Position numbers and translations under genes: made by a program. Below are positions 5,222 through 17,504 of a stretch of DNA of 64,000 bases, piece by piece. The notes beneath the pieces were generated by a model. It was not told the DNA's origin. It searched no databases and saw only the letters and a list, made by a program, of their open reading frames with translations. Position 1 is the stretch's first letter. Each line of letters starts with the position of its first letter. Origin of the DNA: an uncultured Pelagibacteraceae bacterium. Lineage in GTDB: Bacteria; Pseudomonadota; Alphaproteobacteria; Pelagibacterales; Pelagibacteraceae. The stretch is taken from contig CABXYF010000002.1 of assembly GCA_902516435.1 (NCBI GenBank), forward strand, positions 32,828 to 96,827, given 5' to 3'.

Positions 5222-6763
5222 TTACAAGATTGGAAAACTTATTTCTATCATAGCACCTCTATTACTAGCTCTATTAGATGCTACAATTTCACCATCATGT
5301 AAATCTACCAGATTTTTTACAATATTTAGTCCCAATCCTGAGTGTTCTCCAAATTTATCAGGTCGATTACTATAAAATCTATTGAATATTCGAGATGTAT
5401 CCTTTTCCTTAAATCCTTTCCCTTCATCCAGTATTTTAATAGAAACTTTTTTTTCTGATGTACTAGAGACTTTTACAATAATACTATCACCCTTTTTGCT
5501 AAAAGATATTGAGTTATCTAATAAATTTGCAATAATTTGCTCTATTCTGTTCTCTATACCATTGATGAAATATTCTTTTTGTCCATCATTTTCATATTTT
5601 ACATCGATGTCTTTTTTAACCGTATGGATATTATTGTAATCATCAACTACCGATTGGATAATTGGCTCTATATTTATTTTATTCATTTTTTCTTTACTCA
5701 AGGCAACTTCATCTTTTAACATCTGAGAATAATCTGTAATCAATCTTTCAATACGTTGAACATCATGACTAAGTATATTAAGCAGTTTAAGTCTTTGATC
5801 TTTATCATTTGTATCTTGTAAAATTTCTGATGCACTTTTTAAAGACGCTAAAGGATTTCTAATTTCATGAACAAGATCAGTAGAAAAATTTTCTGCATGA
5901 GTAACTCTTTTTTGTAACTCATTTGTCATATCTTCAAGAGAGTTGGTAAGTAGACCTAATTCATCATTTCTATTTTTTAAATTTTCAATATTTGATTTAC
6001 TTTGATTTTTTTCTTTAATTAATTTCGTATAATTAACTAAATTTTGAATTGGTTTAATGAAATATCTACTAAGAACAAAAGAAAAAATTAGAATTACAAA
6101 TCCAACTGATATAGCTGTTCTAAAAACAAAAGCTTTCCTCTCATCTGTTGCGGTCTTGATATCATTAGCATTCTCAGTTATTGCCAGAAAACCAATGTTT
6201 GACCCATCTCTTTCTACACCTTTTATTGTTGTTAATTTAAACTGATTAAAATTCTCTTGAATAAAAGTATATGGATTGTTAGATTTGTTTTTATTTGAAT
6301 AGTCAGTCAAAATTTCTTTTAATGATACTGGCTTTTCTTGATCGATATTAATATTTTTTTCTTCTACATTTTGATCACTCTTTTCTTCACTTAAAGTTTC
6401 AAACTCAACTTCATCTAATCTAGTTGAGAATGATCTTGGATCTAGATCAAGTGTGTCTGTATCGCCAATAAGTTTTAAATTACTATCAAAAAAAATTACT
6501 CTATCTAAATTTTGAAATATAAATCTCGTAGAAAATAAAAATTTTCTAATATCATTCTCATCAAATTTAATATTTAAACGAGTGAGATTGTCGATAGTAT
6601 TATTTATAATCTTAATATGGTTTTCAGATTTTTTTTTAATTAAGTTTGGCTGAATGCTGTTTAAGTAAACAATGGTAAATAATCCAATAATAGTTAAAAT
6701 AATAAAGTTAATAAATAAGAATTTTTTTAATATTGAAAGAGTTTTTAAGTATTTACTAAACAT
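5222..6763 (-). CDS. chvG: Two-component sensor histidine kinase ChvG/ExoS
   Basis: Two TM segments, HAMP domain, HEIRNPL, NLLDNSISFS, DEGKG, RFYSNRP and HSGLGL; coupled to chvI. Confidence 0.88.
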   Translation of the reverse strand: MFSKYLKTLSILKKFLFINFIILTIIGLFTIVYLNSIQPNLIKKKSENHIKIINNTIDNLTRLNIKFDENDIRKFLFSTRFIFQNLDRVIFFDSNLKLIGDTDTLDLDPRSFSTRLDEVEFETLSEEKSDQNVEEKNINIDQEKPVSLKEILTDYSNKNKSNNPYTFIQENFNQFKLTTIKGVERDGSNIGFLAITENANDIKTATDERKAFVFRTAISVGFVILIFSFVLSRYFIKPIQNLVNYTKLIKEKNQSKSNIENLKNRNDELGLLTNSLEDMTNELQKRVTHAENFSTDLVHEIRNPLASLKSASEILQDTNDKDQRLKLLNILSHDVQRIERLITDYSQMLKDEVALSKEKMNKINIEPIIQSVVDDYNNIHTVKKDIDVKYENDGQKEYFINGIENRIEQIIANLLDNSISFSKKGDSIIVKVSSTSEKKVSIKILDEGKGFKEKDTSRIFNRFYSNRPDKFGEHSGLGLNIVKNLVDLHDGEIVASNRASNRGAMIEISFPIL

Positions 6764-7470
6764 TAGCTAACATTCCATCTATATCCACTACCATATCTAG
6801 TTTCAATAGCTGAAAAATCAGGGTCTACTTTTTTAAATTTTTTTCTAATTCGTTTAACGTGGCTGTCTATTGTTCTGTCCTCAATATCTGTATCTTCCCT
6901 ATAAGCAATATCCATTAATTGTCCTCTTTCTTTGATATTACCTGGTCTTTTTGCTAACTCTTTAACAATTAAAAATTCTGTTGTAGTTAATTTGTCAGGT
7001 AATGGTTTACCATTCCATTCACATTCAAGTTGGGATGGATCTAGTTTTAACTTTCCATGAGAAATTAAACTTTTATTTTCCTCTAAAATATTACTAGAAT
7101 CCTTTTTTCTTAATTGTACTCTAATTCTTTCAATAAGAACTTTTATAGAAAAGCCTCCAGATTTTTTCACAAAGTCATCTGCACCTAATTTCAGACCTAG
7201 CAATTCATCAATTTCATCATCTTTAGATGTTAAAAAAATTACTGGCAATGAAGTTTTTTTTCTTAATTTTTTTAATAATTCTTCCCCATCCATCTTTGGC
7301 ATCTTGATATCAATAACTGCAAGGTCAGGTGGTGTTCTTGTTAATCCTATTAGAGCACTCTCCCCGTCTATATAGGTCTGAACTTTAAAGCCGTCTTTTT
7401 CTAAAGCTATACTTAAACTTGTTAGAATATTTCTATCATCGTCTATTAATGCTATAGTTTGTTTTTGCAT
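6763..7470 (-). CDS. chvI: OmpR-family response regulator ChvI
   Basis: IALIDDDRNILTS, DIKMPKMDG, FLTSKDDEIDE and RTIDSHVKRIRKKF are ChvI signatures. Confidence 0.93.
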   Translation of the reverse strand: MQKQTIALIDDDRNILTSLSIALEKDGFKVQTYIDGESALIGLTRTPPDLAVIDIKMPKMDGEELLKKLRKKTSLPVIFLTSKDDEIDELLGLKLGADDFVKKSGGFSIKVLIERIRVQLRKKDSSNILEENKSLISHGKLKLDPSQLECEWNGKPLPDKLTTTEFLIVKELAKRPGNIKERGQLMDIAYREDTDIEDRTIDSHVKRIRKKFKKVDPDFSAIETRYGSGYRWNVS

Positions 7471-10397: not shown

Positions 10398-10949
10398 ATG
10401 GAATTAACAAAAAATCTTGCACAACCTAAAATACTTAAATCTTTGTTAGCTATAGTGCTTGGTTCAATAGCTTTGACTATTTCAGCAAAAATAAAAATTC
10501 CTTTCTACCCTGTTCCTATGACTATGCAAACTTTCGTGGTCTTATTTTTAGGAATTAGCTTAGGATATAAAATTGGATTATCTTCTATTGGATTGTATTT
10601 GTTTGAGGGAATTTTAGGCTTTCCTGTATTTTCAAATTCTCCAGAAAAAGGTGTCGGACTATTATATTTCACAGGTCCAACTATGGGATATTTAATTGGA
10701 TTTTTAACTGCTTGCTATTTAGCATCAATGATAAAATTAAAAGATAATTTTTTAATTATGTTGGGTAAACTATTACTTGCAACTTCGACTATATATATTT
10801 TAGGATTATTATGGTTAGGAACATTAATTGGATGGGATAAACCTATTTTTGAATTGGGAGCTAAACCATTTTTATTAGCTGAAATATTCAAAATTGCGAT
10901 TTTGGCATTATTATTTAAGCAAATTATAAAAATTAGAAAATTTATCTAG
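10398..10949 (+). CDS. bioY: Biotin transporter BioY (ECF S-component)
   Basis: PVPMTMQTF, GFPVF and GPTMGYLIGF motifs. Confidence 0.92.
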   Translation: MELTKNLAQPKILKSLLAIVLGSIALTISAKIKIPFYPVPMTMQTFVVLFLGISLGYKIGLSSIGLYLFEGILGFPVFSNSPEKGVGLLYFTGPTMGYLIGFLTACYLASMIKLKDNFLIMLGKLLLATSTIYILGLLWLGTLIGWDKPIFELGAKPFLLAEIFKIAILALLFKQIIKIRKFI

Positions 10950-11505
10950 GTGATCTTTTAGATAGAATTCTTTGAAGTGTCCTTCTGTGCATTTTTAGTC
11001 TTCTTGCAGTTTCAGAAACATTTCTATTACAAAGTTCAAATACTCTATGGATATGTTCCCATTTTACTCTATCTGCAGACATAGGATTCTCTGGAGGAAC
11101 AGCTTTTTTTGAAGGATCTGCTAATAAAGCTTTTTCAACATCTTCCGCGTCAGCTGGTTTAGCAAGATAATCTATAGCGCCCTCTTTTATTGCAGCAACA
11201 GCTGTAGGTATATTTCCATAGCCAGTTAACATAATTATTCTACTCTCGCTATTTGAATTTTGAATTTCTTTTACAACTTCAAGACCATTTCCGTCTCCAA
11301 GTCTTAAATCTACTACTGCAAAACCGAGTTTTTTTGATTTTACAGTCTCAACACCTTTTTGTACACTTTCAGCTTGTAAAACTTGGAAGCCTTTTTTTTC
11401 CATCGCTCTAGCCAATCTTTCTCTAAATGGATTATCATCGTCGACTATAAGTAACGATTTATTATCGAAATCATTAAGGTTTTGAAGTATTGCTTGCTCT
11501 TTCAT
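10942..11505 (-). CDS. regA: Redox response regulator RegA/PrrA/ActR
   Basis: Receiver domain plus PPENPMSADRVKWEHIHRVFELCNRNVSETARRLKMHRRTLQRIL. Confidence 0.96.
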   Translation of the reverse strand: MKEQAILQNLNDFDNKSLLIVDDDNPFRERLARAMEKKGFQVLQAESVQKGVETVKSKKLGFAVVDLRLGDGNGLEVVKEIQNSNSESRIIMLTGYGNIPTAVAAIKEGAIDYLAKPADAEDVEKALLADPSKKAVPPENPMSADRVKWEHIHRVFELCNRNVSETARRLKMHRRTLQRILSKRSPR

Positions 11506-11511
11506 GATGCT

Positions 11512-11539
11512 TATATAGTTATTAATATAAATTTTTCAA
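11512..11539 (-). promoter_or_regulatory. Putative regA promoter (leaderless)
   Basis: TTGAAA-N16-TATATA, then 6 nt to the ATG. Confidence 0.5.
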
Positions 11540-11602
11540 TATATGAATATTCAACAATTCTGTATTGAATTATTTACTTTACATTAGTGATCTTTACTTT
11601 AT

Positions 11603-11668
11603 ATGCCAGAAAATATTAAAGTTTTTTATTATAAAGACTTTTTTTTATTAAATTTTTTTTGGAGGCAT
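11603..11668 (+). promoter_or_regulatory. Candidate structured 5' leader occluding the GGAGG RBS of the decarboxylase gene
   Basis: CCAGAAAA (11606-13) can pair with TTTTTTGG (11655-62), or ATGCC (11603-07) with GGCAT (11664-68). Inner stem AAAGTTTTT/AAAGACTTT. Confidence 0.4.
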
Positions 11669-11673
11669 TTAAA

Positions 11674-12858
11674 ATGCAAAAATTTAAATCGGTTGAGGAA
11701 CTTATAAATCAACTGAAACCTGAAAAACCAGTATACTGTATAAGAAAGAAATCAATTGAGTCTGCTGTAAATTTTTTTGTAAATAAGTTCGTAGGATCTA
11801 TTTTATATGCAGTAAAAACAAACCCTCATCCAGAAGTAATTAAAACTGTAATAGATTCAGGGATTGAGCAATTTGATGTCGCGTCAATTGAAGAGATTAA
11901 AAATATAAGAAATTTTAGTAAAACGGCAAAATGCTCTTATATGCATACTGTAAAAAGTAGAGAAAGTATTAAAGAAGCTTATTTTAATTATGGTGTTAAA
12001 AGTTTTTCATTAGATACAAAAGATGAGTTAATCAAAATTATAGAAAGTACAAATAATGCAAAAGATTTAGAATTATTTGTAAGAGTAGCAGTATCAAATG
12101 AACATGCAGAAATAGATCTGTCTAAAAAATTTGGAGCTTTAACATCAGAGGCTATAGGCTTAACAAGATTAGCAAAACAACATGCAAAAAAAATTGGTTT
12201 AAGTTTTCATGTTGGATCTCAATGTATGCATCCAATCTCTTATTCAAAAGGTATTAGTGAAATTGGAAATATAATTAAAAAAACAAAAATTGTTCCAGAT
12301 TATCTCAATATAGGAGGTGGATTTCCAACAATATATCCTGATTTAATTCCACAATCATTAGATAGTTATTTCAATGAGATTACAAAAAGTCTTGAAAATT
12401 TGAAACTTGAAAAATTACCAAAAATAATTTGCGAACCTGGAAGAGCTTTAGTTGCTGAAAGTGGATCAACAATTGTGAAAGTTAACTTAAGAAAAAAACA
12501 AAAGCTTTTTATCAATGATGGCACTTATGGTACTCTTTTTGATGCTGGTACTCCAAATATTGTTTTCCCTTCAAAGATGATTAAAGAAAACTCTAATAAA
12601 ATTATTTCAAAAAAATTAACAGCTTTTGATTTCTTTGGTCCAACATGTGATAGTATGGATTATATGAAAGGTCCTTTTTTACTTCCAAATAATATAAAAG
12701 AAAATGATTATATAGAACTTGGTCAGCTTGGGGCATACGGTTTAACATTTAGAACTAAGTTTAATGGATATTACTCAAATGAAATTTATGAAGTTGCAGA
12801 CAAACCAATAATGACAATGTACGATAAAGACACCGACAAAGCTAATATGGTTGCATAA
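11674..12858 (+). CDS. Alanine-racemase-fold (type III PLP) basic amino acid decarboxylase of the ODC family; ornithine or arginine specificity unresolved
   Basis: YAVKTN (PLP Lys), FDVAS, SFHVGSQ, IGGGF, EPGR, GPTCDS and GAYG motifs. ATG 11674 follows GGAGG. Confidence 0.9.
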   Translation: MQKFKSVEELINQLKPEKPVYCIRKKSIESAVNFFVNKFVGSILYAVKTNPHPEVIKTVIDSGIEQFDVASIEEIKNIRNFSKTAKCSYMHTVKSRESIKEAYFNYGVKSFSLDTKDELIKIIESTNNAKDLELFVRVAVSNEHAEIDLSKKFGALTSEAIGLTRLAKQHAKKIGLSFHVGSQCMHPISYSKGISEIGNIIKKTKIVPDYLNIGGGFPTIYPDLIPQSLDSYFNEITKSLENLKLEKLPKIICEPGRALVAESGSTIVKVNLRKKQKLFINDGTYGTLFDAGTPNIVFPSKMIKENSNKIISKKLTAFDFFGPTCDSMDYMKGPFLLPNNIKENDYIELGQLGAYGLTFRTKFNGYYSNEIYEVADKPIMTMYDKDTDKANMVA

Positions 12859-13901
12859 TGTCAGACCAGAAAAATCTAGGTCATAATAGTAAAAAAGATT
12901 TCTTAAAAAACCCAGTAGAGCACATTGATATCACTACTTTTGATGCTAGGAAGATAATTTCATCAATGGAAAAAATGTCTTTTGTATCCAGAGAGACTGC
13001 TAATGCAGCAAATATATATAATGAAATGCTAAAAGATAAAGAATGTACAATATTTTTAACCTTGGCAGGATCAACATCAGCCGCTGGGTGTATGAATATT
13101 TATAAAGACTTAGTCAAATACAATATGGTAGATGCAATAGTTGCTACTGGAGCATCTATAATTGACATGGATTTTTTTGAGGCATTGGGTTTTAAGCATT
13201 ATAAGGGTTCACAGTTTCAAGACGATACTGAATTAAGAAAAAATTATATTGATAGAATTTATGATACTTACATAGATGAAGAGGAATTACAGGAATGTGA
13301 TAAAAAAATATGCGAGATTGCGGATACATTAGAACCAAGAAGTTATACATCTAGAGAGTTTATTTGGGAAATAGGCAAATATCTAAAAAAAAATTCTAAG
13401 AAAAAAGACTCTTTAATTGAAACAGCATATGAGAATAATGTACCAATATTTTGCCCTGCATTTACAGACTCTAGTGCCGGTTTTGGATTGGTAATTCATC
13501 AAGAAAATAATCCAAAAAAACATATGACTATAGATTCTATAAGAGAATTCAGAGAGCTAACTGAAATTAAAATACAATCAAAAGGATCTGGCTTATTTAT
13601 GATTGGTGGTGGAGTTCCAAAAAATTTTATTCAAGATACTGTTATATGTGCTGAGCTTCTTGGAAAAGAAGTTGATATGCATAAATATGCTATTCAAATT
13701 ACTGTTGCTGACTCTAGGGATGGGGCTTGTAGTAGCTCTACTCTTAAAGAAGCCAGTTCTTGGGGCAAAGTAGATATAACTAAAGAACAAATGGTTTTTG
13801 CTGAAGCAACTAGTGTTTTGCCTTTAATAATGAGTGACGCATATCACAGAGGTGAATGGAAAAATAGAGATAGAAAAAATTTTTCCAAAATATTTAAATA
13901 A
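12858..13901 (+). CDS. Deoxyhypusine-synthase-like protein (homospermidine pathway, SpeY-like)
   Basis: DRIYDTY, FCPAFTDS, GGGVPKNF and DGACSSSTLKEASSWGKV (catalytic Lys in WGK). Confidence 0.9.
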   Translation: MSDQKNLGHNSKKDFLKNPVEHIDITTFDARKIISSMEKMSFVSRETANAANIYNEMLKDKECTIFLTLAGSTSAAGCMNIYKDLVKYNMVDAIVATGASIIDMDFFEALGFKHYKGSQFQDDTELRKNYIDRIYDTYIDEEELQECDKKICEIADTLEPRSYTSREFIWEIGKYLKKNSKKKDSLIETAYENNVPIFCPAFTDSSAGFGLVIHQENNPKKHMTIDSIREFRELTEIKIQSKGSGLFMIGGGVPKNFIQDTVICAELLGKEVDMHKYAIQITVADSRDGACSSSTLKEASSWGKVDITKEQMVFAEATSVLPLIMSDAYHRGEWKNRDRKNFSKIFK

Positions 13902-13913
13902 AAATATTTAAAT

Positions 13914-14696
13914 ATGAAAATTCCAATATATCAAGTTGATGCTTTTACATCTGAAGTATTTAAAGGAAATCCTGCAGCTGTATGTCCTCTGAAAGAATGG
14001 CTCTCTGAAAAAATTATGCAAGAAATAGCAAAAGAGAATAATTTATCAGAAACAGCTTTTTTCGTTAAAAATAATAAAAAATTTGATATTCGTTGGTTTA
14101 CTCCTGTTTCTGAATTAGATTTAGCGGGACACCCTACGCTTGCAACGGCTCATGTAATCATAGAAGAGTTAAATTTCAAATATGATAAAATTATTTTTAA
14201 AACCAAAATCGGTGATACATTAAATGTCATTAAACAAAATAATCTATATTTAATGGATTTTCCATCAAGACCTCCTGAAGTATATGATAATATTGAGTTA
14301 GTTTCAGAGGCATTAAGAAAGAGACCTTTAGCACTGCTTCGTCATAGAGATGCAGTTGCAATTTTTGAAAATGAAGAAGATATAAAATCTATAGAACCCA
14401 ACATGGAAAAGTTAAGTAAATTAGATTGTCCAGCGGTAATAGTTACTGCACCTGGAAATAATGTAGATTTCGTATCTAGAAACTTTGCTCCAAAATTAGG
14501 AATACCTGAAGATCCTGTGACTGGATCTGCTCACTGTGAATTAATTCCTTATTGGTCTAAAATACTAAATAAAAAAGAATTATTAGCTAATCAAATATCT
14601 AAAAGAGGAGGAAAACTTTATTGTACTCATAACAAAGACAGGGTTACAATAGGTGGAGAAGCAGTTACCTTTTTAAGGGGAGAAATAGAAATATAA
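13914..14696 (+). CDS. PhzF-family isomerase/epimerase
   Basis: QVDAFT..FKGNPAAV, NLSETAF, RWFTP..ELDLAGHPTLA and EDPVTGSAH motifs. Confidence 0.9.
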   Translation: MKIPIYQVDAFTSEVFKGNPAAVCPLKEWLSEKIMQEIAKENNLSETAFFVKNNKKFDIRWFTPVSELDLAGHPTLATAHVIIEELNFKYDKIIFKTKIGDTLNVIKQNNLYLMDFPSRPPEVYDNIELVSEALRKRPLALLRHRDAVAIFENEEDIKSIEPNMEKLSKLDCPAVIVTAPGNNVDFVSRNFAPKLGIPEDPVTGSAHCELIPYWSKILNKKELLANQISKRGGKLYCTHNKDRVTIGGEAVTFLRGEIEI

Positions 14697-14700
14697 ATAA

Positions 14701-15582
14701 ATGATAAAAAAAACTAAAATTGCAATAGTACAAACAAAAGTTTCAAATAATGAAAATTTAAATATAAAAAATTCTATTGATAAAATAAAACAAGCAGCAA
14801 AAAAAAAAGCTAAAATAATTTGCCTACCAGAGCTATTTCTTTCTCCTTATTTTTGTCAGACTGAAAATCATTCAAAATTTAAATTAGCTGAAAAAATTCC
14901 TGGAAAAAAAACTATTTTATATTGTGAATTAGCAAAAAAACTTTCTGTAATTTTAATTATTCCACTCTTTGAGAAAAAAACTTCTGGATTTTACCACAAT
15001 ACAAGCATCATAATAAATGAAAAAGGTAAAATAATTTCTAAGTACAGAAAAATGCATATTCCAGATGATCCTGGGTATTATGAAAAGTTTTATTTTACGC
15101 CTGGTGATTTAGGATTTAAATCTACAAAAACAAAATATGCTAAAATAGGGTCATTAATATGTTGGGATCAATGGTTTCCTGAAGCTGCAAGACTAACTGT
15201 TTTAAAGGGTGCTGAAATATTATTTTATCCTACAGCTATAGGATGGCACCCAAAAGAAAAGAAAAAATTTGGAAAATCTCAGTTAGATGCCTGGATCGTA
15301 ATGCAAAGAAGTCATGCTATTGCTAACGGTGTCTTTGTAGTAGCAATAAATAGAACTGGATTAGAAAAGATAGGAAATAAAAAAATTCAGTTTTGGGGTA
15401 ACTCAATGATCATTGATCCAAGTGGAAATATAGTTGCAAGAGCAAAATCAGAAAAAGAAGAAATTTTAATTTGTGATATTAATTTAAGCAAAATTGAAAA
15501 CGCAAGAAACCATTGGCCATTTTTAAGAGATAGAAGAATTGATTATTATAAAGGATTAACCAAGAATCCTAAGGATGAATAA
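14701..15582 (+). CDS. aguB: N-carbamoylputrescine amidohydrolase-like carbon-nitrogen hydrolase
   Basis: Nitrilase triad LPELF / YRKMHIPDDPGYYEKFYF / ICWDQWFPE and FLRDRR; adjacent to aguA. Confidence 0.88.
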   Translation: MIKKTKIAIVQTKVSNNENLNIKNSIDKIKQAAKKKAKIICLPELFLSPYFCQTENHSKFKLAEKIPGKKTILYCELAKKLSVILIIPLFEKKTSGFYHNTSIIINEKGKIISKYRKMHIPDDPGYYEKFYFTPGDLGFKSTKTKYAKIGSLICWDQWFPEAARLTVLKGAEILFYPTAIGWHPKEKKKFGKSQLDAWIVMQRSHAIANGVFVVAINRTGLEKIGNKKIQFWGNSMIIDPSGNIVARAKSEKEEILICDINLSKIENARNHWPFLRDRRIDYYKGLTKNPKDE

Positions 15583-16648
15583 AATTTTATCTCTTAAAGG
15601 TTACAGAATGCCTGGGGAATGGGAGTTACAAAAATCAGTATGGATTGCCTGGCCATACAATAAAAAAGATTGGCCTAATTTATTCAAAAATATACCAAGA
15701 GTAATTGCAGAAATAATTGCAAATTTATCAAATTCTCAAAAAGTAAATTTATTAATTAATCATCGTAATAATAAAATTAAGATCAAAGAAATATTAAATA
15801 ACTTTGATTGTAAATTATCAAACATTGTATTTTATAATATACCTACAAATAGAATCTGGTTAAGAGATTCGGGTCCTATTTTTCTAGTAAATGAAATAAA
15901 TAAAAATAAAGTTTTACTTAACTTTAAATTTAACGCCTGGGCTAAATATCATGATTATCAAAAAGATAACATGATTAATAATAAAATTTCAAAAATAACC
16001 AAAATTAAAAAAATTAACCCTGTTAGGAAGTTTAATAATAAACTTAAACAAGTAGTTTTGGAGGGTGGTGCTTTCGATGTAAATGGAAAAGGATCAATAT
16101 TGTTAACTAAAGAATGTCTTTTAAGTAAAATACAGGAGAGAAATCCAGGAATTACTAAATACGTTTTAGAAAATATTTTAAAAAAATATCTAAATGTTAC
16201 AAATTTTATTTGGTTAAACAAAGGAATTGAAGGTGATGATACACATGGACATATAGATGATATTACAAGATTTGTATCTGAAAACACAATTATGACTGCA
16301 ATTGAAAAAAATAGAAATGATAAAAACTATTTTAATTTAAAAGAAAATTATGAAATTTTAAGACGAGCAAAAAATTTAAAAGGGAAAAAATTTAGAATTA
16401 TTAAAATTCCAATGCCAGAGCCAATATATATTGATAATATAAGAGTGCCTGCAAGTTATCTAAATTTTTATATAGCTAACAAAATAATTCTTTTACCTAT
16501 TTTCAAAGACAAGAATGATAAAAAAGTATTATCAATTTTTAAAAAATTTTTTAAAAAAAAAAAAGTTATACCAATTAATTGTAGAGAGTTAATTTGGGGT
16601 TTTGGTGCTATTCATTGTATGACTCAACAAGAACCAGAGGTATTTTAA
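15575..16648 (+). CDS. aguA: Agmatine deiminase family protein
   Basis: MPGEW, WLRDSGP, LEGG, DDTHGHIDD, ASYLNF and GAIHCMTQQEP motifs. Confidence 0.92.
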   Translation: MNKILSLKGYRMPGEWELQKSVWIAWPYNKKDWPNLFKNIPRVIAEIIANLSNSQKVNLLINHRNNKIKIKEILNNFDCKLSNIVFYNIPTNRIWLRDSGPIFLVNEINKNKVLLNFKFNAWAKYHDYQKDNMINNKISKITKIKKINPVRKFNNKLKQVVLEGGAFDVNGKGSILLTKECLLSKIQERNPGITKYVLENILKKYLNVTNFIWLNKGIEGDDTHGHIDDITRFVSENTIMTAIEKNRNDKNYFNLKENYEILRRAKNLKGKKFRIIKIPMPEPIYIDNIRVPASYLNFYIANKIILLPIFKDKNDKKVLSIFKKFFKKKKVIPINCRELIWGFGAIHCMTQQEPEVF

Positions 16649-17193
16649 GCGGGTCTTAAGGTTCCTAGTAATAATCTAAAAGGTATCAACATTATTAATG
16701 CAACAAATATTTTAACTGCTAAATCGCCTAGGGATAACGTAACCCACGGAACACCTGTTGCATAAAAAGAAATTGAAAAAAACAAAAAAGTATCAACAGT
16801 TGATCCAATTAATGAAGAGGTCAATGGTGCTATAAACCATTTTCTATTTCGTAATTGATCAAAAATTTGAACATCTAAAAGTTGGGCAACTAAAAAAGCA
16901 GTTCCTGATCCAATTGCTATTCTCACTGAAATTAATTCTGTAAAATTAGTTGAGAATAATAAGGTAAAACTAATTCCTATCGCAAAACCAATATAAACAA
17001 TTTTTCTAGCAACCAACTTTCCATAAGATCTATTTGCTAAGTCAGTTATTAAAAAAGCTACTGGATAACTAAATGCTCCATAAGTTAATATCTCTTCCAG
17101 CCCATAATATTTAATCGGGAATTGGACTAAATAATTTGAGGATAAAACAACAACTCCCATTAAAAATGAGAGAAACAAAAATAATTTATTCAT
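16645..17193 (-). CDS. Queuosine precursor transporter (VUT/YhhQ family)
   Basis: SSNYLVQ, YPVAFLITD, RIAIGSGTAFLVAQLLD and DTFLFF motifs. Confidence 0.85.
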   Translation of the reverse strand: MNKLFLFLSFLMGVVVLSSNYLVQFPIKYYGLEEILTYGAFSYPVAFLITDLANRSYGKLVARKIVYIGFAIGISFTLLFSTNFTELISVRIAIGSGTAFLVAQLLDVQIFDQLRNRKWFIAPLTSSLIGSTVDTFLFFSISFYATGVPWVTLSLGDLAVKIFVALIMLIPFRLLLGTLRPA

Positions 17194-17504
17194 TATGCAG
17201 ATTTAACTAAAGGTTTTTTCTTATAAGGTGATTTAATTAAAATACCTTTTTTTAATTTTTTAAGTCTTGGAGACAAGTTTTTATTTTTTACAGTTTTTAA
17301 GTAATCGTCAAAACTACCTTTTTTATCAACTGATCTAACTCCAGCATTGCTTACTGTTAATTTCAGACTTCTTTTCATAAGTTCACTGGTAAACTTTACT
17401 TTCTTTAGGTTAGGTAAAAATCTTCTTTTAGTCTTATTGTTAGCGTGACTAACATTATGACCTTTCATAGGAATTTTACCAGTAAGTTCACATTTTTTTG
17501 ACAT
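17193..17504 (-). CDS. rpmB: 50S ribosomal protein L28
   Basis: [29 protein letters not shown]. Confidence 0.97.

Follow-up and report, generated by a model that had tools for sequence, protein, structure and literature searches.

How does a SAR11 cell turn arginine into homospermidine, and at which point are the guanidino groups removed? Five co-oriented genes from a marine Pelagibacteraceae (SAR11) genome of the genus Pelagibacter raise this question, and the window analyzed here is a 64,000-nucleotide stretch of that genome. The original prediction left two routes open: either agmatine is converted to putrescine before condensation, or a DHS-like enzyme couples agmatine first and AguA and AguB then deprotect the product, releasing ammonium. 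The second option was offered as a new pathway variant. We consider it very probable that the locus encodes the iminohydrolase form of the SAR11 SpeY pathway, in which homospermidine is made from agmatine, with an exchangeable deprotection cassette and an accessory PhzF-like gene. The features are:

10942-11505 (-): divergent response regulator gene (ActR/PrrA-type), 5' boundary of the putative operon
11506-11673 (+): divergent intergenic region; blocks of conservation (CTTTACATTA, T-runs), Shine-Dalgarno GGAGG at 11662-11666
11674-12858 (+): putative arginine decarboxylase (ADC) gene, ATG start, 394 aa
12858-13901 (+): predicted SpeY gene (DHS homolog)
13914-14696 (+): PhzF-like gene, 260 aa
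14701-15582 (+): AguB-like gene, carbon-nitrogen hydrolase
15575-16648 (+): AguA-like gene, guanidino-group deiminase
16645-17193 (-): convergent queuosine-precursor transporter gene, 3' boundary of the operon

The ORF coordinates and motifs agree with the layout first described, namely gaps of -1, 12, 4, and -8 nt between the five genes and intact catalytic motifs. Pfam assigned Orn_Arg_deC_N plus Orn_DAP_Arg_deC, DS, PhzC-PhzF, CN_hydrolase, and PAD_porph to the five products (E 6e-36 to 4e-108), and neither the ORFs nor Pfam placed a ureohydrolase among them, as had been noted before. The mechanical start of the ADC ORF is TTG 11659, and ATG 11674 lies downstream of the GGAGG. When 46 related leaders were aligned, the blocks were conserved and the consensus hairpin was weak (-3.2 kcal/mol); no Rfam family matched the leader region 11506-11673. 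Promoter and terminator scans of the operon stayed at chance level in this DNA of 29% G+C. A QPT-L28-PyrD block lies 3' of the operon, as it does in marine relatives.

In the proposed pathway, the ODC-fold enzyme would decarboxylate arginine to agmatine, and SpeY with NAD+ would join two agmatines to N1,N9-bis(guanidino)homospermidine (G44G, diagmatine). The AguA-like enzyme would deiminate both guanidino groups of G44G, yielding bis(carbamoyl)homospermidine (C44C) and 2 NH3, and the AguB-like enzyme would hydrolyze both carbamoyls of C44C to give homospermidine, 2 CO2, and 2 NH3. The first three steps have been shown biochemically for orthologs, step 1 in Pelagibacter and Fonsibacter and steps 2 and 3 in Fonsibacter. 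From orthology and synteny we infer the same three steps in the genome of the window, and the AguB step is a prediction in every organism. Homospermidine is present in HTCC1062 cells (PMC8437039).

The product of 11674-12858 appears to be an alanine-racemase-fold ODC homolog that was neofunctionalized to arginine decarboxylase and makes agmatine. It contains PF02784 and PF00278, and the motifs KTNP (PLP lysine), GGG, EPGR, and PTCD are present. It scored under all NCBIfam equivalog cut-offs (lysA, 127.5 vs 297.9), and so did the Fonsibacter-genus ortholog (124.8). Identity was 63-64% to the Fonsibacter-genus orthologs in the equivalent position and 82-92% to marine relatives. The purified decarboxylases of Ca. 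P. ubique and Ca. F. ubiquis accept L-arginine as their sole substrate, not L-ornithine or L-lysine (PMC9992855). Orthology to these assayed Pelagibacter and Fonsibacter enzymes is positional, given by the place upstream of speY, and at 394 aa the window protein is exactly as long as the assayed one from Ca. P. ubique (PMC9992855).

The next product (12858-13901) is predicted to be SpeY, a diagmatine (G44G) synthase that joins two agmatines. It has the DS fold (PF01916, E 1e-99) and passes the G44G-synthase equivalog NF002699 (581.6 bits, cut-off 500), while its scores on every model for DHS or for a 'homospermidine biosynthesis protein' lie below the cut-off (NF001980, 189.6 bits vs 450). In alignment with DHS structures, its motifs are GGGVPKN at residue 250 (NAD-binding) and SWGK at 301 (catalytic lysine). 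Identity to SpeY of the genus Fonsibacter is 79-80%. The ADC gene directly precedes speY, overlapping it by 1 nt, and aguB-aguA lies downstream, likewise in 76 related loci.

These results bear on the first option of the original prediction, in which AguA and AguB first yield putrescine from agmatine, and homospermidine then arises when the DHS-like enzyme condenses two putrescines, or putrescine and spermidine. Homologs of AguA and AguB from P. aeruginosa do turn agmatine into putrescine, as cited in PMC13625781, and before 2026 the DHS homolog (dys2) was annotated in SAR11 papers as a homospermidine synthase that uses putrescine (PMC8437039). However, Ca. F. ubiquis SpeY expressed in E. coli produced G44G, and all bacterial SpeYs tested, including that of Fonsibacter, accumulate G44G and yield homospermidine only with a deprotecting enzyme (PMC13625781). 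The passing of NF002699 and failing of NF001980 by the window SpeY also argue against this option, as do AguA-like and AguB-like scores well under the canonical equivalog cut-offs. Moreover, an AguA that consumed agmatine would deprive SpeY of its substrate, as argued in PMC13625781. We regard the putrescine route as highly improbable.

The SpeY-first reading draws further on synteny with Fonsibacter and on the products obtained with the Fonsibacter genes, since Ca. F. ubiquis SpeY together with AIH (the AguA homolog) gave bis-carbamoyl-homospermidine, C44C, in E. coli (PMC13625781). Thus the part of the original prediction in which agmatine is coupled first, AguA and AguB deprotect, and ammonium is released held up, while the claim of a new, undescribed variant did not. 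A drawing of the cluster appeared in PNAS in 2023 (PMC9992855), and a JBC paper of September 2026 (PMC13625781) demonstrated the pathway. The route is therefore already known, having been published for the freshwater sister genus Fonsibacter.

The AguA-like protein is a predicted diagmatine iminohydrolase (DIH) that would convert G44G to C44C. It has the PAD_porph fold (PF04371, E 4e-108), and the motifs WLRD, EGG, HGHIDD, and HCMTQ are conserved with the catalytic Cys348, His, and Asp present. It is only 59-60% identical to orthologs from the genus of the tested enzyme, Fonsibacter, the comparison being at the level of the genus. It matches the uncharacterized 1XKN (319.6 bits) far better than solved agmatine deiminases (about 180 bits), and the loop insertions of 2JER are absent. 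Canonical agmatine deiminase AguA was rejected as an assignment (TIGR03380, 259.9 vs 381.8; NF010070, 277.3 vs 483), and the Fonsibacter-genus ortholog likewise fell short of the TIGR03380 cut-off (253.7). The AguB-like protein would act as the C44C amidohydrolase (NCHAH) proposed in PMC13625781, removing the carbamoyl groups of N1,N9-bis(carbamoyl)homospermidine, a role predicted here because its gene has a fixed place between speY and aguA. It belongs to PF00795 (CN_hydrolase), has an intact Glu-Lys-Cys triad (PEL, RKMH, CWD), and is 66-69% identical to its positional ortholog in Fonsibacter. Assignment as canonical N-carbamoylputrescine amidase AguB failed as well (TIGR03381, 299.8 vs 410.25); the Fonsibacter-genus ortholog scored 304.6 on this model.

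The two deprotection enzymes might instead have dual use, acting on G44G and C44C as well as on agmatine and N-carbamoylputrescine. This would also give putrescine for AdoMetDC-aminopropyltransferase, or nitrogen from imported agmatine. P. aeruginosa AIH accepts both agmatine and G44G (PMC13625781), SAR11 imports agmatine and has been argued to rely on multifunctional polyamine enzymes (PMC8437039), and the genome of the window encodes an aminopropyltransferase. However, the only SpeY-associated AIH with kinetics, that of R. wittichii, is inactive on agmatine (PMC13625781), and the separate agmatinase-family paralog of marine aguBA-type genomes could supply putrescine. We regard dual use as rather unlikely.

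Across SAR11, two deprotection cassettes can take each other's place at this locus, aguB-aguA and a speY-linked speB-type ureohydrolase. The slot 3' of speY in marine SAR11 holds one or the other, never both together. Among 80 speY-anchored loci, speB followed speY in 70 (one with PhzF between) and aguB(-aguA) in seven, three ran into a contig edge, and none carried both cassettes. The mutual exclusion of aguBA and speB beside this SpeY clade, which the original prediction had put to a survey, was thus the answer obtained. An aguA homolog in SAR11 was invariably linked to speY: the order SpeY-AguB-AguA was found in all 29 loci inspected and in all 76 contig loci with enough upstream DNA (74 with strict spacing, two with a split AguB match). 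At least nine cassette switches are needed on the ADC+SpeY tree.

Arginase-family genes followed the cassettes. All five near-complete aguA-bearing genomes had a single such gene, an unlinked paralog of about 320 bits, and all five near-complete aguA-lacking genomes had the ~320-bit paralog plus a speY-linked arginase-family gene of about 204 bits. Marine aguBA-type genomes retain the separate agmatinase-family paralog, which passes agmatinase models, and the arginase-family gene of the window's own genome is the 320-bit paralog only. Since the SpeB enzymes tested in E. coli all hydrolyzed G44G (PMC13625781), this unlinked paralog could do so too. Five Fonsibacter-genus genomes had no clear arginase-family gene, and aguBA must therefore suffice there. 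Among the 18 urease-bearing genomes sampled, none had aguA. The genome of the window is 79% complete, so the absence of a second speB or a urease from it is provisional. The incremental new points are cassette exclusivity, repeated switching, the absence of the speY-linked speB from aguBA-type genomes, and the lack of aguA in the urease-bearing genomes sampled.

The PhzF-like gene is most likely a rare accessory insert, a passenger in an exchange-prone slot. The family assignment is clear (PF02567, 208 bits; TIGR00654 subfamily, 146.2 bits, cut-off 76.2), and the motifs that carry the catalytic Glu, His, and Asp (SETAF, GHPT, EDP) are preserved. Phenazine PhzF was rejected as an identity (about 56 bits vs 1U1V/1T6K; no phz genes in the neighborhood). 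A genuine extra step, such as isomerizing or tautomerizing an intermediate or a SpeY side product, would fit the intact motifs and the embedding of the gene between spacers of 12 nt and 4 nt. It would also fit the genus Pelagibacter, where every copy with readable neighbors (about 20 loci) lies exactly between speY and whichever deprotection cassette the locus has; speY-phzF-speB occurs in about 20 loci and speY-phzF-aguB in one. However, among 400 other Pelagibacteraceae species in the sample only 2 have the gene and 398 lack it, though speY loci are common, and it is absent at the inspected loci of Fonsibacter, the source of the genes that yielded the pathway products in E. coli. The ADC+SpeY tree would require it to have been gained or lost at least nine times. 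Orthologs of 65-72% identity in other SAR11-like lineages adjoin guaA, panB, or the gene of an HI0933-type flavoprotein, those of lower identity (57-61%) adjoin PLP-enzyme, EamA, or hydantoinase genes, and no speY was found near either set. The closest solved relatives of the protein are uncharacterized. An extra step is therefore improbable. Because the gene is rare, occurs with either cassette, and sits elsewhere in other lineages, it probably performs no pathway step, and its earlier listing as an operon member does not extend to a conserved part of the pathway.

It is doubtful whether, taken together, the speB-to-aguBA exchange is an adaptive nitrogen-economy switch within SAR11 populations and the PhzF-like gene adds a further pathway-linked reaction. 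If so, urease-less cells would have given up a last step that releases urea for one that recovers the four guanidino nitrogens in full, as ammonium, and would avoid internal urea build-up.

Among known systems, the closest structures to the PhzF-like protein are the uncharacterized short PhzF-family members 1S7J (227 bits over full length) and 4DUN; true PhzF (trans-2,3-dihydro-3-hydroxyanthranilate isomerase) has the PhzC-PhzF fold and the SETAF Glu in common with it. Canonical AguA and AguB share the PAD_porph and CN_hydrolase folds, catalytic residues, and reaction types with the operon's pair, but they act on agmatine and N-carbamoylputrescine, whereas the predicted substrates of the operon's pair are bis-substituted triamines. 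The ADC-SpeY-agmatinase cluster of Ca. Pelagibacter ubique (PMC9992855) has the same ADC, SpeY, genomic slot, and G44G intermediate, and the window ADC and SpeY are 82-95% identical to those of marine relatives. The SpeY plus SpeB (caldomycin) pathway of Thermus thermophilus (PMC9992855; PMC10981699) likewise proceeds through G44G. In these two systems one ureohydrolase deprotects and 2 urea are released, whereas in the window a deiminase and an amidohydrolase would release 4 NH3 and 2 CO2, the cassettes substituting at an equal position. A further close system is the ADC-SpeY-NCPAH-AIH cluster of Ca. Fonsibacter ubiquis (PMC9992855 Fig. 2; PMC13625781), from the same GTDB family as the window and with the same proposed chemistry, arginine to agmatine, G44G, C44C, and homospermidine. 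Fonsibacter-genus loci have the order BioY, RegA (-), ADC, SpeY, AguB, AguA as in the window, with 59-80% protein identity and a near-identical NCBIfam score profile. The window differs from Fonsibacter in being marine, in the additional PhzF-like gene that separates speY from aguB, in its downstream QPT-L28-PyrD block, and in keeping the unlinked agmatinase-family paralog that is absent in the five Fonsibacter-genus genomes.

Five co-oriented open reading frames fill positions 11674-16648 of the plus strand, with spacings of -1, 12, 4, and -8 nt, and catalytic motifs were found in all five proteins. ORF, Pfam, and motif reading thus bore out the original prediction of five co-oriented genes with these gaps and intact motifs. 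The features are as follows.

Upstream flank, plus strand: BioY
Upstream flank, minus strand: ActR/PrrA-type response regulator
Operon gene 1, plus strand, from 11674: AR-fold PLP decarboxylase (arginine decarboxylase of the ODC fold, ADC)
Operon gene 2, plus strand: DS (deoxyhypusine-synthase) protein, SpeY
Operon gene 3, plus strand: PhzF family protein
Operon gene 4, plus strand: CN-hydrolase, AguB-like
Operon gene 5, plus strand, to 16648: PAD_porph deiminase, AguA-like
Downstream flank, minus strand: queuosine-precursor transporter
Downstream flank, minus strand: L28
Downstream flank, minus strand: PyrD

The decarboxylase starts at the ATG at 11674, after a GGAGG at 11662-11666, and is 394 aa long, while mechanical ORF calling sets the start at a TTG (11659). 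The G+C content is ~29%. The aguA-like gene runs 4 nt into the 3' end of the convergent queuosine-precursor transporter gene (16645-16648), and thus there is no space for a terminator between the two. Across 11300-17300, promoter and terminator scans did no better than chance (35 promoter-like sites, 35.7 expected). The leader (11506-11673, 168 nt) is long for SAR11, and its blocks CTTTACATTA, long T-runs, and GGAGG are conserved across 46 relatives. An Rfam scan of 10900-17300 (E<=1) found no known riboswitch in the leader, with sub-threshold noise only, and the consensus fold of the 46 related leaders, a light test, gave a single small weak hairpin of -3.2 kcal/mol. On these grounds we do not endorse a structured leader; the sequence resembles a conserved promoter or operator more than it does a riboswitch.

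The window's SpeY is 91-95% identical to those of 80 Pelagibacteraceae / Ca. Pelagibacter species representatives, and the source genome (1.01 Mb, 46 contigs, 79% complete) is a marine SAR11. No model for deoxyhypusine synthase or for 'homospermidine biosynthesis protein' reached its cut-off with SpeY, and SpeY's top match in the PDB was an archaeal deoxyhypusine synthase at 114 bits, with no close structure. The AguB-like and AguA-like proteins also fell below the cut-offs of their canonical equivalogs (299.8 against 410.25, and 259.9 against 381.8). The AguA-like protein matches the uncharacterised 1XKN structure at 319.6 bits, far better than it does the solved agmatine deiminases (~180 bits).

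The original prediction called for a survey of whether aguAB and speB exclude each other beside this deoxyhypusine synthase clade. They proved mutually exclusive: among 80 speY-anchored loci from marine relatives, a speB-type agmatinase homolog (TIGR01230, ~205 bits) followed speY in 70, with PhzF intervening in one of them, while aguB(-aguA) followed in 7, 3 ended at a contig edge, and none carried both. An AguA homolog was present in 147 of the 400 other Pelagibacteraceae species sampled, covering 7 of 19 genera and 20 of 21 Fonsibacter, the freshwater sister genus; this count takes in one unpublished genome (G068), on which no other claim depends. Wherever the flanks were readable the arrangement was speY-aguB-aguA (29/29 and 76/76 loci in two sets), with a split AguB match in two of the 76. 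In two aguBA-type SAG loci (L241:4385-4984 and L242:4105-4671) the AguB match spans part of the gene only, which a frameshift, an error in assembly, or aguB decay may explain. Five near-complete genomes bearing aguA had a single arginase-family gene of ~320 bits, whereas five lacking aguA had this gene plus a second of ~204 bits, the speY-linked type. Exclusivity is based on the 80 anchored loci and these 10 near-complete genomes. Together with the AguA-locus counts, they indicate that the two cassettes are alternatives at one slot.

In the window's genome, the 320-bit arginase-family paralog was the only one found; it lies on another contig, adjoining an aldehyde dehydrogenase gene (genome G000, contig C1:117010-117966; L002:7011-7970), and scores 314.8 bits with NF002564, above the cut-off. 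It is just 28% identical to the speY-linked SpeB and was present in 10 of 10 marine Pelagibacter genomes checked, with either cassette. It may act as the true agmatinase or, in a catabolic route, as a guanidino-acid hydrolase. No clear arginase-family gene, this paralog included, was found in five near-complete Fonsibacter-genus genomes (G014, G027, G036, G045, and G103), where PF00491 gave one weak match of 19.6 bits. A Ca. F. ubiquis speB is among the co-expressed genes in PMC13625781; the expectation that this 'speB' is the paralog's ortholog was not borne out in those five genomes, where the paralog was not found. Elsewhere in the window's genome (contig C5:34345-34863; L259), a 346-aa open frame contains an aminopropyltransferase (PF01564, 88.7 bits), and thus the genome also has a spermidine/spermine branch. 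An AdoMetDC-aminopropyltransferase fusion has been reported in Pelagibacter (PMC11107197).

On a FastTree phylogeny of concatenated ADC and SpeY from 166 loci, cassette state changed at least 9 times, at least 7 of them forced by well-supported branches, against ~54 for shuffled labels. The cassette differs even between loci with near-identical ADC and SpeY (branch lengths <=0.004; L027 and L036 with aguBA, L029 with speB), which points to very recent replacement through recombination between the conserved sequences on either side, speY and the gene for the queuosine-precursor transporter. An aguBA clade of 17 loci is sister to the window; the window's flanks are 91-94% identical to this clade, its AguB 82%, and its AguA 72-74%, and its AguA is roughly equidistant from all marine AguA alleles. 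These figures suggest that the PhzF-aguB-aguA segment is a divergent allele introduced by recombination. The sole near-identical copy found is on a 3-kb contig of SAG AG-337-J02 (L088; 97-98%).

The PhzF-like gene was present in only 2 of the 400 other family genomes sampled. A wider scan found speY-phzF-speB at ~20 Pelagibacter loci and the window-like speY-phzF-aguB at one (L088). The nearest structures, 1S7J and 4DUN, are both uncharacterised, true PhzF scored only ~56 bits, and the ESM Atlas returned a generic PhzF family name only. Orthologs 65-72% identical occur in other SAR11-like lineages after guaA, with panB or an HI0933-type flavoprotein gene next to them, and more distant ones adjoin PLP-enzyme, EamA, or hydantoinase genes. 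This one small gene thus sits in different housekeeping neighbourhoods across SAR11 lineages; in other SAR11-like single-cell genomes (L104-L119, L141, and L145) it directly follows guaA and precedes panB or the flavoprotein gene, at 6001-6780 in most. A pathway-linked role for a gene that lies between speY and aguB seems improbable: it co-occurs with either cassette, is absent from nearly all speY loci, was not found in the Fonsibacter loci inspected (the genus of the published experiments), and was gained or lost at least 9 times on the ADC and SpeY tree. It is probably a passenger in a slot prone to exchange.

In the surface ocean, SAR11 outnumbers all other heterotrophs and is often nitrogen-limited. 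By the chemistry established for both enzyme classes, each homospermidine made by the ureohydrolase route frees 2 urea, and each made by the deiminase/amidohydrolase route 4 NH3 and 2 CO2. The window's genome (79% complete) yielded no urease alpha subunit. Urease was above cut-off in 18 of 400 family genomes, and none of the 18 was among the 147 bearing aguA. This anti-correlation is suggestive only, since the genomes share ancestry and urease is also missing from most genomes of the speB type. Urease is absent from HTCC1062 and HTCC7211, while homospermidine is present in HTCC1062, and it has been speculated that agmatinase-derived urea inhibits growth under nitrogen limitation (PMC8437039). 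Ammonium- versus urea-releasing polyamine synthesis might be an ecotype trait.

The ODC homologs of Ca. P. ubique (394 aa) and Ca. Fonsibacter ubiquis were purified, and L-arginine was the sole substrate decarboxylated (PNAS 2023, PMC9992855); Fig. 2 of that paper already draws a Pelagibacter cluster with an agmatinase homolog and a Fonsibacter cluster with NCPAH and AIH. All SpeY proteins tested, including that of Fonsibacter, condense two agmatines into N1,N9-bis(guanidino)homospermidine (G44G), and Fonsibacter or R. wittichii SpeY, each with its own AIH homolog, yields the bis(carbamoyl) form (C44C) (JBC, September 2026, PMC13625781). The purified R. wittichii AIH homolog was active on G44G and not on agmatine (PMC13625781). 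The biochemistry in PMC13625781 stops at C44C, with the final amidohydrolase step proposed, and the AguB step is inferred in every organism. The original prediction weighed conversion of agmatine through putrescine against coupling of agmatine first, with AguA and AguB removing the guanidino groups. Given the SpeY and AIH results (PMC13625781), the second option is the published pathway; its mechanism appears correct, also by synteny with Fonsibacter, and its claim to be a new variant does not hold, the pathway having been published in 2023-2026 (PMC9992855, PMC13625781).

The pathway itself is thus no longer a discovery, and what is new here is incremental: repeated in-place exchange of speB and aguBA, the rare PhzF insert, and the anti-correlation with urease. 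The repeated swap is natural genetic evidence that both cassettes serve the same function, and it lends independent support to the published biochemistry and to the inferred AguB step. The deiminase/amidohydrolase form, until now shown experimentally for genes from R. wittichii and the freshwater sister genus alone, is predicted in marine Pelagibacter genomes, and the ureohydrolase form sits at the identical position in other genomes of the same genus. As the yardstick for orthology, Fonsibacter-genus loci (with an AguA query from that genus) stood in for the exact assayed proteins, including the R. wittichii DIH. These loci share the window's order of BioY, RegA (minus strand), ADC, SpeY, AguB, and AguA, with identities of 63-64% for ADC, 79-80% for SpeY, 66-69% for AguB, and 59-60% for AguA, and their NCBIfam scores nearly equal the window's (SpeY 593.8, AguA 253.7, AguB 304.6, lysA 124.8). 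Judged by this likeness, the locus is a marine member of the pathway published in 2023-2026.
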